DNA from: Candidatus Peribacter riflensis
GTDB taxonomy: Bacteria; Patescibacteriota; Gracilibacteria; Peribacterales; Peribacteraceae
NCBI GenBank assembly: GCA_001430755.1
Contig: CP013062.1
Coordinates: 1,020,001-1,052,000 of the forward strand
Reading direction: 5' to 3'
DNA length: 32,000 nt
Numbering within the stretch: position 1 is the first letter of the stretch; every line of letters begins with the position of its first letter. Of this stretch, positions 1 through 3,926 are shown piece after piece. The notes under the pieces are model-generated. The model was not told where the DNA came from. It did no database searches and saw only the letters and a program-made list of their open reading frames with translations. Both the position numbers and the translations under genes were made by a program.

Positions 1-1401
<1,401 letters not shown>

Positions 1402-1578
1402 ACCAGGGAATTTCTCTGGCCCGGCATTTCTTCTTCGAAGAGTGCGCGGGAACGCATGCGCTGGCTGTGCTTTTAGGCCATCATGCATCCGATTGCCCGG
1501 GAGAGCACCGATGTCCCCAATTGGGGTCAACGACCGGAAGACTTCTCTACTCTGCAATGGTGTGATTTTGTATAAAAG

Positions 1579-2301
1579 GTGTATATATTTCTACACATGA
1601 CTCCTTTTGGACTGCCGCCTCCTGGGTCCCCAATTAAAAAAATACTCAATAGCATTTGTGACTATTCCGAAGATGACTGTTACGTAATTAGTACTGTGAT
1701 TCAGCAATCTGCTCTCGTAGAAAATATTCTAGGAACACTACTACATCGATTATTAATTACCAGGCACGGAAAGACCAAAGAAGAATTTGATAGCAGAGTT
1801 TCAGAAATAAATATTGCTATCTCGGAAATGAATATTTCCAAAAAAACTTGTTTGGTCCGAGCCCATTTAGCCAAAAAGAATGATTCTCTGGCTTCCAGAT
1901 TGGATCAAATCTTCAAAATTCGTGTTCCCATCGCACATGTTCATTATGGAATGCCTTTTGGTAAATCGATTCAAAAAGACGAAATTAAAATAGGTAGAAA
2001 AAGCATTTGGACGCCGGAAGGGCTACACGAATTTGTGCTTTCTTGCCATACAGTAGCTAAAGAGCTTATGGAAATTATTGGCGACAATCAGGAAAAGGAG
2101 TTAACGGATGCAAAAATTGAAAAGAAATTAATCGAATATACGAAAGAAAAGATCTTGAAGAAAAAGTGGTTGGGTGAAAAGGACAATACTCAATTGAGCG
2201 CGCTCTCTGAGAGAGAGAAACATCTGAATAGACTCATCGAAATGGAGGAACCTCGCAGTAAACGGGCAACAGAGAGTTTGAAAAATATGTTTCATTCCTG
2301 A
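1579..2301 (+). CDS. HEPN-like protein (MtlR/DUF4145-type helical domain with R-x4-H motif) plus a K/E-rich C-terminal coiled-coil; lies in an AT-rich island. ATG at ~1597 (MTPFG...) is a likelier start than the GTG at 1579
   Basis: 240-aa ORF fills an AT-rich patch (~1560-2330) that contrasts with the GC-rich flanks. Motif IFKIRVPIAHVHYG (R115-x4-H120, nt 1921-1938) is preceded by the amphipathic helix pattern (VISTVIQQSALVENILGTLLHRLL ... NISKKTCLVRAHL) typical of MtlR-like/DUF4145 HEPN domains. A TATATT box sits ~7 nt before the ATG. Confidence 0.55.
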   Translation: MYIFLHMTPFGLPPPGSPIKKILNSICDYSEDDCYVISTVIQQSALVENILGTLLHRLLITRHGKTKEEFDSRVSEINIAISEMNISKKTCLVRAHLAKKNDSLASRLDQIFKIRVPIAHVHYGMPFGKSIQKDEIKIGRKSIWTPEGLHEFVLSCHTVAKELMEIIGDNQEKELTDAKIEKKLIEYTKEKILKKKWLGEKDNTQLSALSEREKHLNRLIEMEEPRSKRATESLKNMFHS

Positions 2302-2335
2302 ACGAAAACAAAACAACCTACAAAATCCCGGAAAC

Positions 2336-2517: not shown

Positions 2518-3003
2518 ATGGAGAACCAACCCGTTCAACCCACCGGCTGCTGCGACCCCTTCAACCCCGAACCTTGGCAGGAAAAGGAGATCACGTGGAA
2601 CAATAAGCTCTTTGTGAAGGATCACGTGACGAGCTTTCTGCATATTCCCCTCAACATGGGCAAAGTGGTGACGAGGAACATGAAACTGATCGAACAAGCC
2701 GGCGCACAGTCCTCCGTTCAGCTCATGCTCAGCGACGAAAAATCCCTCTGGGGCGCGGATATCTACATCGATGTGACGAAAGATGTCCCGGGCGCGCAGA
2801 TGGCCACGATTTCGGGAACATTCCTGACCAAAGTCTTCGAGGGACCGTACAAGAATGTCGGCAAATGGATGAAGGAGATGCAGGACTACGTCGCGGCAAA
2901 AGGGCAGACTCTCCGCAAGGTGTACTGCTGCTACACCACCTGCCCCCGTTGCGCCAAAGCGTATGGGAAGAACTACGTAGTAATTTTTGCACAGATCCGG
3001 TAG
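2518..3003 (+). CDS. Conserved hypothetical protein with an N-terminal CC and a C-terminal CxxC (possible metal/Fe-S ligand set)
   Basis: ORF 2344..3003 trimmed to the ATG at 2518 (MENQPVQPTGCCDPFNPEPW...). The upstream in-frame stretch coincides with the hairpin-rich leader. Globular-looking sequence ending YTTCPRCAKAYGKNYVVIFAQIR. I recall similar hydrolase-annotated hypotheticals but cannot verify this. Confidence 0.6.
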   Translation: MENQPVQPTGCCDPFNPEPWQEKEITWNNKLFVKDHVTSFLHIPLNMGKVVTRNMKLIEQAGAQSSVQLMLSDEKSLWGADIYIDVTKDVPGAQMATISGTFLTKVFEGPYKNVGKWMKEMQDYVAAKGQTLRKVYCCYTTCPRCAKAYGKNYVVIFAQIR

Positions 3004-3006
3004 TCG

Positions 3007-3450
3007 TTACTGCCTCTTTGCCCAGTTCTCAAACCTCCCGACTGCACCACGCACGCCCCGGACCAGAGAATCGATCCGTTGACCCACAGTCACTTTGCGT
3101 CCGTTCGTCGCCTCTGACTGCCTCCACGAACTGCGCAGTGCGAAAAGAAGCATATCGAGAGCCTCCTTCTGGTCCCGTGCGTAGATCGGCACGACGAACC
3201 GGAGGACCTGCTCCATATCGTTCGGCCAGGCAGTGTCACCTCTGCCAGACGCCTCCTGTGTCATCTCCGCAACGAGCGCAAACACAGAGGCATACAACAC
3301 GGCAGGAACTGGCATCTCTTTTTTTGGGTCACTATCTTCGCGAAAGAGAGCGTTCTGTACTCCGTTGATCCTTGAAACGATGCGGTTGGCTTCCGCATCC
3401 CGGTTGACCGATGTCTGCAGCCCTTCCTTGGAGAAGAAACGATCTGCCAT
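3007..3450 (-). CDS. Hypothetical protein (147 aa from MADRFFSKEG...)
   Basis: ORF 3007..3540 trimmed to Met31 (ATG at c3450), because a near-consensus promoter ends 7 nt upstream of that ATG. No recognisable domain. Confidence 0.6.
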   Translation of the reverse strand: MADRFFSKEGLQTSVNRDAEANRIVSRINGVQNALFREDSDPKKEMPVPAVLYASVFALVAEMTQEASGRGDTAWPNDMEQVLRFVVPIYARDQKEALDMLLFALRSSWRQSEATNGRKVTVGQRIDSLVRGVRGAVGRFENWAKRQ

Positions 3451-3457
3451 CTTTATT

Positions 3458-3486
3458 ATTATAACATGAATATTATTCATATGCAA
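3458..3486 (-). promoter_or_regulatory. Sigma70-type promoter TTGCAT-N17-TATAAT (extended TGT-TATAAT) 7 nt from the ATG, predicting a leaderless mRNA; inverted repeat in the spacer
   Basis: Minus strand: -35 TTGCAT (3481-3486), -10 TATAAT (3458-3463), 7 nt to ATG c3450. The spacer contains ATGAAT-ATT-ATTCAT (3466-3480). Confidence 0.6.
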
Positions 3487-3587
3487 TAACCTTACAGGCC
3501 TGCAGAGAACGGCTGTCTGGAGAGAGAAAATGAGGAACAAAAAACACTTTCCCTTGCTGGCAAAGCAGGCACAATGTCCCCTTCATC

Positions 3588-3926
3588 ATGGAGCACCCCT
3601 CCCCCTCTCCGAAAAAGCAAAAACTCTCCCCCGCGGGCGAGCAGAGATTGCATCAGGCAACGTCTATCCATAACACACTATGGACCGACATATTCAATGG
3701 CCAGGATTGCATTCGGAGAATGACTCCGGACCGACGGGCAGTAGTCGAATTCCGTATGCCACACATCGAACAGATACTTGATTTCGTCCGTCATTATTTC
3801 GCCTGCACCATCAATGGAGAGAAGAGGGTGGGAGTAGAAGTGGCCCTTCCCACTCGCAGTCGTGCACATGCACAGTACAACCTGGTTTGCCGGGCCCTGC
3901 TCTCGCATGAATTCGAAATCAGTTGA
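3588..3926 (+). CDS. Hypothetical protein (112 aa)
   Basis: Only sizeable ORF filling 3541-3939. No promoter or domain recognised. Confidence 0.35.
   Translation: MEHPSPSPKKQKLSPAGEQRLHQATSIHNTLWTDIFNGQDCIRRMTPDRRAVVEFRMPHIEQILDFVRHYFACTINGEKRVGVEVALPTRSRAHAQYNLVCRALLSHEFEIS

Follow-up and report, generated by a model that had tools for sequence, protein, structure and literature searches.

An AT-rich single-gene cassette with a remotely HEPN-like product in a gene-turnover slot behind the 16S rRNA gene of Candidatus Peribacter riflensis

Results

A single gene fills an AT-rich island behind the 16S rRNA gene

The DNA examined here (the window) is a stretch of 32,000 nucleotides (nt) from Candidatus Peribacter riflensis, positions 1020001-1052000 of the contig of genome G000, in which the 16S ribosomal RNA (rRNA) gene is followed by an AT-rich island with one gene, whose product is termed P0001. 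Coordinates are window positions unless marked "genome". The genome is a single contig of 1,248,026 bp with 58.5% G+C, and five complete genomes of the species have been described (1,248,071 ± 217 bp, 58.5% G+C), with single 16S, 23S and 5S genes and no CRISPR-Cas (PMC4736985). Comparisons covered eight congeners, an order-wide sample of 200 Peribacterales genomes and, for the site behind groEL, 30 Peribacteraceae genera. The island and its gene comprise the following features, all on the plus strand:

1570-2301, AT-rich single-gene cassette (the island); homology to congeners is lost at about 1569 and regained downstream, in the repeats and the hydrolase gene
1584-1589, −10-like TATATT box, 7 nt upstream of the ATG, read from the sequence; no −35 partner was found
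1597-2301, coding sequence of the 234-residue protein P0001, from the list of open reading frames (ORFs) and their translations; aligns over its full length with two homologs at 30-38% identity
1669-1956, helical domain at the N terminus (about residues 25-120), remotely similar to HEPN domains of the MtlR type (hhalign 43.5%, profile rank tests)
1921-1938, codons R109-V-P-I-A-H114 (R-x4-H motif); R109, A113 and H114 are invariant in 3/3 family members, and hhalign places the motif onto RNKFAH of MtlR-like proteins
2014-2295, C-terminal tail rich in Lys and Glu, for which two long helices are predicted (residues 140-187 and 194-233; AlphaFold2, predicted local distance difference test (pLDDT) score 82-91 over most of the tail)

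The G+C profile drops from about 0.50-0.55 upstream to 0.34-0.42 at about 1570-2300 and returns to 0.52-0.55 downstream. With 37.3% G+C against the genome mean of 58.5%, the island lies at z = −5.5 among same-size genome windows, only 0.07% of which are equally AT-rich. In the whole 1.248-Mb genome only nine segments, this one included, fall below 42% G+C. G+C at third codon positions (GC3) is 36% in the island ORF versus 74% in the next gene (2518-3003). A first-pass annotation of this DNA had described an abrupt AT-rich switch after the 16S gene and back, one ORF occupying the island and a TATATT box 7 nt from its ATG; all of these were confirmed, the ORF running from the ATG at 1597 to the TGA at 2301.

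The public gene call for this ORF (P0002) is a protein of 201 residues starting with a GTG at 1696, omitting 33 conserved N-terminal residues. Because residues 12-33 are conserved in the homologs, the ATG at 1597 is preferred and the public call is considered too short. The sequence IRVPIAH (R-x4-H) reported by the first-pass annotation is present, and its Arg and His are R109 and H114 when numbered from this ATG; the numbers R115 and H120 given earlier result from counting from a GTG at 1579. The Lys/Glu-rich tail that had been noted from the sequence is likewise supported as two predicted long helices spanning residues 140-233, while the tails of the homologs gave only weak coiled-coil-type Pfam matches. 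AlphaFold2 models of the full protein and of the domain, built from three sequences, are all-helical with moderate pLDDT (77 and 79). In the reading favoured here, P0001 would be a 234-residue cytoplasmic protein with a divergent MtlR-type HEPN-like N-terminal domain followed by a long two-helix coiled-coil hairpin.

The gene belongs to an extremely rare family with a patchy distribution

An exhaustive phmmer search of 1.84 billion representative proteins returned P0001 itself and two relatives only, P0003 (38% identity to P0001) and P0004 (32%). Word-indexed searches with P0001 and with the family profile found no further members, and no relative was found in scans of viral and metagenome contigs or by tblastn in phage and plasmid records. 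The gene was present in 2 of the 200 Peribacterales genomes and absent from all eight congeners. Weak order-wide matches were judged spurious, and the corresponding ORFs in G431 and G401 are GC-rich frames without the motif.

P0003 is encoded in a genus other than Peribacter (genome G009) directly after groEL. Its ATG is 7 nt beyond the terminator stem of groEL, and here too the gene forms a 38% G+C island in DNA of 60-69% G+C. P0004 comes from a 1-kb ENA contig, in which an AT-rich ORF sits just past a terminator hairpin between GC-rich flanks. The three proteins can be aligned over their entire length, and 51 positions are invariant, among them E42, H50-R51-L-L, R109, A113 and H114. If the ORF were a chance frame in AT-rich filler rather than a real gene, this could be argued from the fewer stop-free frames that AT-rich DNA has by chance in gene callers trained on GC-rich DNA and from the truncation of the public call. 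However, three intact full-length ORFs with 30-38% identity and 51 invariant positions in three unrelated contexts effectively refute such an explanation.

The absence of the gene from 8/8 congeners and 198/200 members of the order, the AT-richness of all three loci and the different locus occupied in G009 strongly support horizontal acquisition of the 1570-2301 cassette, as the first-pass annotation had proposed. That the three copies are divergent and all AT-rich in GC-rich hosts implies that each was acquired separately, and rather recently, from a low-GC gene pool outside the sampled genomes.

Remote similarity of P0001 to MtlR-type HEPN proteins

The first-pass annotation had read P0001 as a HEPN protein of the MtlR/DUF4145 type. 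A conserved R-x4-6-H motif is among the features of the HEPN superfamily (PMC3710099), and the Arg and His of R-x4-H are conserved in every member of the P0001 family despite their divergence; in P0004 the motif has the canonical form RNIFAH. Comparison by hhalign of the family with five MtlR-like proteins, a set seeded from a candidate phyla radiation (CPR) protein that passes PF05068, gave a probability of 43.5% and a score of 33.8, with RVPIAH aligned onto RNKFAH and the helices in the same order. The invariant E42 of the first long helix was also paired by hhalign with a Glu of the MtlR-like proteins. Control scores were all lower, 12.5 ± 2.5 (maximum 20.9) for 100 column shuffles and 16.4 ± 3.3 (maximum 30.4) for 100 block shuffles. 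As a yardstick, the MtlR-like alignment against DUF4145, two accepted clan-mates, scored 29.0, which is below 33.8.

Rank tests pointed the same way. The complete set of 7,482 six-frame ORFs with 80 or more residues from the genome was scanned, unfiltered, with a hidden Markov model (HMM) of the MtlR-like proteins, and the P0001 ORF came first with E 0.021, the next having E = 8. In the reverse test, five of six MtlR-like proteins were among the ten best of 7,505 sequences ranked by the family HMM. When it was run on them together with 222 decoys that were AT-rich and matched in composition, the MtlR-like proteins came next after the family's own three members and ahead of DUF4145. P0004 also matched weakly the HEPN portion of the CARF-HEPN Csx20 model in PADLOC (E 0.0023), and the highest template modelling score (TM-score) in the PDB fold search was that of E. 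coli MtlR (6kcr_C; 0.40, E 1.7).

Several results weigh against reading P0001 as a HEPN protein. It matches no Pfam, NCBIfam, PADLOC or PHROGs family significantly, a PDB sequence profile search was empty at E ≤ 10, and none of P0001, P0003 and P0004 matches a Pfam model of the HEPN clan at E ≤ 10, PF05068 included; the six-frame genome search with PF05068 was empty as well. PADLOC-DB 2.0 defence models gave no match for P0001 or P0003 and weak ones for P0004. In Foldseek searches of PDB and BFVD no match of the full model had E < 0.06 and none of the domain model had E < 0.29, both models matching generic helical bundles and coiled coils only; the match to MtlR is below any threshold of fold identity, a HEPN toxin in the same search (7ae6_A, E 3.4) was no significant match, and the models themselves draw on three sequences. 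When E. coli MtlR was added to the comparison profile, the hhalign probability became 11% and the resulting HMM lost the first rank of the ORF. At the motif, the residue after the Arg is Val in P0001 and Ile in P0003, with Asn only in P0004, and a polar residue (N, D or H) is typical at this position of active HEPN RNases (PMC3710099). HEPN proteins further have a second conserved acidic residue upstream, typically within E-x3-[KR] (PMC3710099); E42 is not in such a setting, with no K or R at +4.

Kinship to DUF4145 (PF13643) was rejected. Alignment with 17 CPR DUF4145 proteins by hhalign gave 0.25% and a score of 14.8, P0001 has no Pfam match to the family, and the genome search was negative.

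These observations could also be explained if P0001 were a helical orphan with no kinship to HEPN, such as the product of an accessory or left-over gene from a low-GC phage or plasmid of Peribacteria that has so far escaped sampling. R-x4-H would then be a coincidence specific to the family. The lack of a significant match in curated or fold libraries agrees with this, as do profile scores that are all sub-threshold and sensitive to the choice of MtlR sequences, and the remaining cassettes of the two slots described below are orphans as well. By contrast, the two families retrieve each other in both directions with DUF4145 and decoys ranking lower, motif and helix order are in register, and the searched viral contigs, phage records and plasmids contain no relative. 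We consider a HEPN-unrelated orphan unlikely. Thus, from sequence comparison, P0001 probably belongs to the HEPN superfamily, nearest to the MtlR type: of the original reading, the invariant R-x4-H and the remote MtlR-type similarity stood, whereas the DUF4145 link proved to be noise, no HEPN-clan Pfam or significant fold match was obtained, and the polar residue is absent.

Membership of the superfamily is compatible with a protein that does not cleave RNA. In such a case P0001 would be an MtlR-like protein with a HEPN-type fold that binds RNA or a partner, as proposed for E. coli MtlR, and in this way regulates a process of the host or of a mobile element. Its nearest detectable relatives are indeed MtlR-like, the position of the polar residue that aids catalysis in KEN-domain RNases (PMC3710099) is filled by Val here and by Ile in P0003, and an active RNase on its own, with no antitoxin, would endanger the cell. 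However, inactive MtlR members typically lose the R-x4-H motif (PMC3710099), and here it is retained, with R and H invariant in 3/3 members at only 30-38% identity; no mannitol or phosphotransferase system (PTS) context was seen, and a patchy, hotspot-bound distribution fits a conflict gene better than a housekeeping regulator. A non-catalytic regulator is therefore rated as quite unlikely, and active RNase function of P0001 is itself proposed only tentatively, with the odds somewhat against it.

The cassette occupies a turnover slot between the pre-16S processing stem and a field of repeats

The flanks of the cassette contain the following features:

1-1402, plus strand, 16S rRNA gene (Rfam RF00177, 1363.8 bits, model positions 64-1533), truncated at its 5' end by the window edge; bounds the slot upstream
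1403-1567, plus strand, 3' trailer of 16S, conserved in congeners up to about 1569
1538-1567, plus strand, 3' strand of the pre-16S processing stem, pairing with the leader at genome 1019817-1019843
2300-2423, no strand assigned, GC-rich folded repeat with two hairpins, about 105-120 nt, beginning at the stop codon of the ORF; five copies in the genome and many in congeners
2467-2497, no strand assigned, short hairpin repeat of about 30 nt (GTCACCC...GGGTGAC); at least 8 near-identical copies in G000 and present in all congeners
2518-3003, plus strand, Bact_hydrolase (PF20603) gene (Pfam E = 3.8e-65; G+C 54%, GC3 74%); downstream flank of the slot, outside the cassette

DNA similarity to the eight congeners extends from 16S through the trailer, the last 30 nt of which form, with the 16S leader, the outer helix of the pre-16S processing stem. 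Because this strand ends at 1567 and congener homology ends at about 1569, the cassette begins no more than a few bases from the stem's outer end. All eight congeners share a backbone in which 16S is followed by a variable stretch, sufD, another variable stretch and sufB. The unlinking of 16S and 23S is therefore ancestral to the genus and not caused by the island. Accordingly, the proposal that the island sits at the place of a 16S-23S spacer and 23S gene was not borne out, and displacement of the 23S gene by the island was rejected. Unlinked rRNA genes are common (bioRxiv 10.1101/705046), and the only 23S gene of the genome is 173 kb from 16S. As a separate observation, this 23S gene (genome 1194029-1198017) spans 3,989 nt versus a model of 2,925 positions and thus contains an insertion of about 1 kb, which may be an intron or an expansion; 16S has none.

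In G006, G007 and G008 the trailer is followed by other AT-rich ORFs on the opposite strand (132-254 residues, G+C 0.37-0.39), which mostly have predicted transmembrane segments and show no similarity to P0001; unrelated AT-rich ORFs also occur right after 16S in G031 and G034, which represent other genera. The slot is empty in G484, where the trailer leads through 555 nt of GC-rich repeats to the hydrolase gene. Transfer hotspots between core genes are a known phenomenon (Oliveira, Touchon and Rocha 2017, PMC5635113), and the site behind 16S has the makeup of a hotspot in their sense, a conserved trailer and hydrolase or sufD flanks enclosing occupants that are unrelated or missing.

The repeats of the empty G484 slot include an A/C-rich leader, a T-rich/A-rich hairpin with a GCGC loop and a CGCCGCCAC...GGGGGTGAAGGGG motif, and the same elements follow cassettes elsewhere. 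Given that these repeat types are found in a slot without a cassette, they are a property of the slot, not part of its cargo. The idea that the folded repeat behind the stop codon is itself cargo, or an attC-like cassette end, was accordingly rejected. The second hairpin of this repeat has the form CCTTTCTTTGC-loop-GCAAAGAAAGG, with compensatory stem changes between genome copies, and its other copies in the genome are not beside AT-rich genes, a further point against the attC-like reading. Repeats with an identical 18-mer hairpin also follow the homologous gene in G009, and the occurrence of this hairpin beside both copies is best taken as a slot property too. The folded repeats after the ORF are dispersed singly and do not form arrays (no search aimed at an integron integrase was made). 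A helix chain seen at 2336-2496 consists of copies of dispersed repeats.

The first-pass annotation had also suggested that the small genes at 2518-3926 might belong to the same accessory module. A multi-gene module would agree with the variability of these genes among congeners. On the other hand, their G+C is host-like, the hydrolase gene adjoins 16S in G007, G008 and G484, and the genes for 147- and 112-residue proteins occur in G002 and G007, all without a gene for a P0001-like protein, and wholly different genes surround the G009 and ENA-contig homologs. A module was therefore rejected as highly improbable. The suggestion that the gene stands alone with no nucleotidyltransferase (MNT) or other recognizable partner fared better. 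Upstream of the three family loci lie 16S, groEL and the terminator of an unknown gene, none of them shared, and on the downstream side repeats precede unrelated genes (here that of the PF20603 hydrolase, in G009 that of a DUF6166 protein on the opposite strand); neither an MNT partner nor any other conserved neighbour was found at the three loci. With no neighbour in common and the 2518-3926 genes independent of it, the gene is a stand-alone unit. The P0001 cassette is a swapped-in single-gene unit in a gene-turnover hotspot between the processing stem and the repeat field.

A second slot behind groEL points to a gene pool with a defence flavour

An AT-rich ORF that is co-oriented with groEL and begins 5-15 nt past its terminator was found in 8 of the 30 Peribacteraceae genera. 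The occupants all differ from one another, and the P0001 family is the only one common to both slots. In P. riflensis itself the groEL slot (genome 403801-404595; L064:647-1438) contains a single AT-rich gene with 40% G+C, whose 264-residue product matches PADLOC PDC-S45, a phage-defence candidate, with E = 8e-13. Genes for an XcyI-type restriction endonuclease (Pfam 4.6e-15; genome 485485-486522) and an ImmA/IrrE M78 peptidase (1.3e-23; genome 163413-163961) are found in further AT-rich islands of the genome, beside genes for large orphan proteins of 548 and 554 residues. The presence of PDC-S45-like, XcyI-type and ImmA/IrrE genes in AT-rich DNA indicates that the low-GC flexible gene pool has a defence flavour, which gives contextual support, not proof, to a conflict role of P0001.

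In G018 the post-groEL slot (L068:529-1464) holds a two-gene AT-rich cassette, in which a zinc-ribbon protein gene precedes one for a 155-residue protein with weak likeness to nucleoside 2-deoxyribosyltransferase and TIR-type effectors (Pfam 0.0011, PADLOC 0.031).

Expression signals at the start of the cassette

A consensus scan of the island start found no full sigma-70 promoter, and the spacing of the TATATT box fits the near-leaderless geometry of other genes in the window. In G001, G002, G007 and G008 an intrinsic terminator (AAAAGGGG...CCCCTTTTT) follows the 16S trailer directly, and the cassettes there face this terminator. No such terminator was found in P. riflensis, where none lies between the 16S trailer and the ATG, or in its nearest relative G006. 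Comparison of the 1567-1597 interval thus presents a post-trailer terminator that is kept in four congeners and lost in P. riflensis and G006. The P. riflensis cassette is co-oriented with 16S, its ATG lying 30 nt beyond the processing stem. Given the lack of a terminator and of a full promoter, the co-orientation and the 7-nt gap in G009, read-through from a strong upstream unit is plausible. The gene may be expressed as a near-leaderless mRNA from the TATATT box, by read-through from the 16S promoter, or both.

Discussion

The composition jump and its boundaries, the rarity and patchy distribution of the gene, the two hotspots and the conserved residues are demonstrated, whereas the HEPN relationship is an inference from remote homology. 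We favour, at a probability of roughly 0.5, that it is a horizontally acquired and most likely stand-alone gene for a HEPN-like RNase or RNA-binding conflict protein, residing in an ordinary turnover hotspot. By analogy with known HEPN proteins, P0001 may dimerize, probably with help from the coiled coil, so that two R-x4-H motifs would face each other, and the dimer could then bind or cleave RNA without metal ions. In this view the gene would serve in conflicts on its own, in the manner of abortive infection, and not as one partner in a toxin-antitoxin pair. The case for a defence or conflict role is purely contextual, and we regard such a role as possible, at close to even odds.

Little is known about defence or gene uptake in CPR bacteria with 1-Mb genomes, and P. 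riflensis has been reported to be devoid of CRISPR-Cas (PMC4736985). As far as its sequences tell, the P0001 family, previously unannotated and extremely rare, probably represents a new lineage of the HEPN RNase superfamily that is divergent and carries a coiled-coil tail. The two defined single-gene turnover slots, post-16S and post-groEL, could be mined across Peribacteraceae for new defence genes, and the locus itself is a testable case of a possible toxin gene behind an rRNA gene that has no terminator. A bolder model would have Peribacteraceae using the DNA behind the heavily transcribed 16S and groEL genes as promoter-less docking sites for foreign single-gene cassettes, in an integron-like manner without an integrase, with the HEPN-like gene co-transcribed with pre-16S and freed by stem cleavage as a near-leaderless mRNA. 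We consider this model improbable. If it were true, the dose of an RNase-type defence protein would be tied to rRNA synthesis. Neither hotspots nor stand-alone HEPN genes are new, so the locus marks an incremental advance unless this expression coupling is real.

Among known systems, HEPN-MNT (HepT-MntA) resembles the present case in that P0001 is a small HEPN-type protein with R-x4-H. By contrast, no nucleotidyltransferase lies beside the three family loci, and P0001 shows no similarity to PF05168 or PF01934. The closest likeness is to MtlR (PF05068; E. coli MtlR, PDB 3BRJ/6KCR; Anantharaman et al. 2013, PMC3710099), which gives the best profile, rank and TM matches. P0001 is modelled as all-helical, and its elements follow one another as in MtlR: first a long helix carrying a conserved Glu, then a loop and a short helix, and finally a helix that ends in R-x4-H. 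RNxFAH of CPR MtlR-like proteins corresponds to RNIFAH in P0004. P0001 differs from MtlR in not reaching the PF05068 model at all, in having an additional helix (residues 61-77) and a coiled-coil tail of 95 residues, in Val for Asn after the Arg, and in its location at a CPR transfer hotspot away from any mannitol or PTS genes.

Like the single-gene HEPN abortive-infection proteins (Abi2/AbiD/AbiF, AbiJ, AbiU2 and AbiV; PMC3710099), P0001 is partnerless, AT-rich, mobile and patchy, and its conserved R-x4-H would by analogy suggest a metal-independent RNase, whereas neither Pfam nor PADLOC gives it a sequence match to one of these proteins. Finally, the two slots behave like the transfer hotspots between core genes (PMC5635113) and the defence hotspots of core genomes in being fixed intervals, from 16S to hydrolase or sufD and from groEL to its downstream gene, that hold differing foreign genes or none, at least one occupant being a defence candidate (PDC-S45-like). 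Unlike in those hotspots, however, the cassettes here are single genes of 0.4-0.8 kb without an integrase or other mobility gene, those behind groEL start 5-15 nt past the terminator in co-orientation, and the slots are packed with GC-rich folded repeats.

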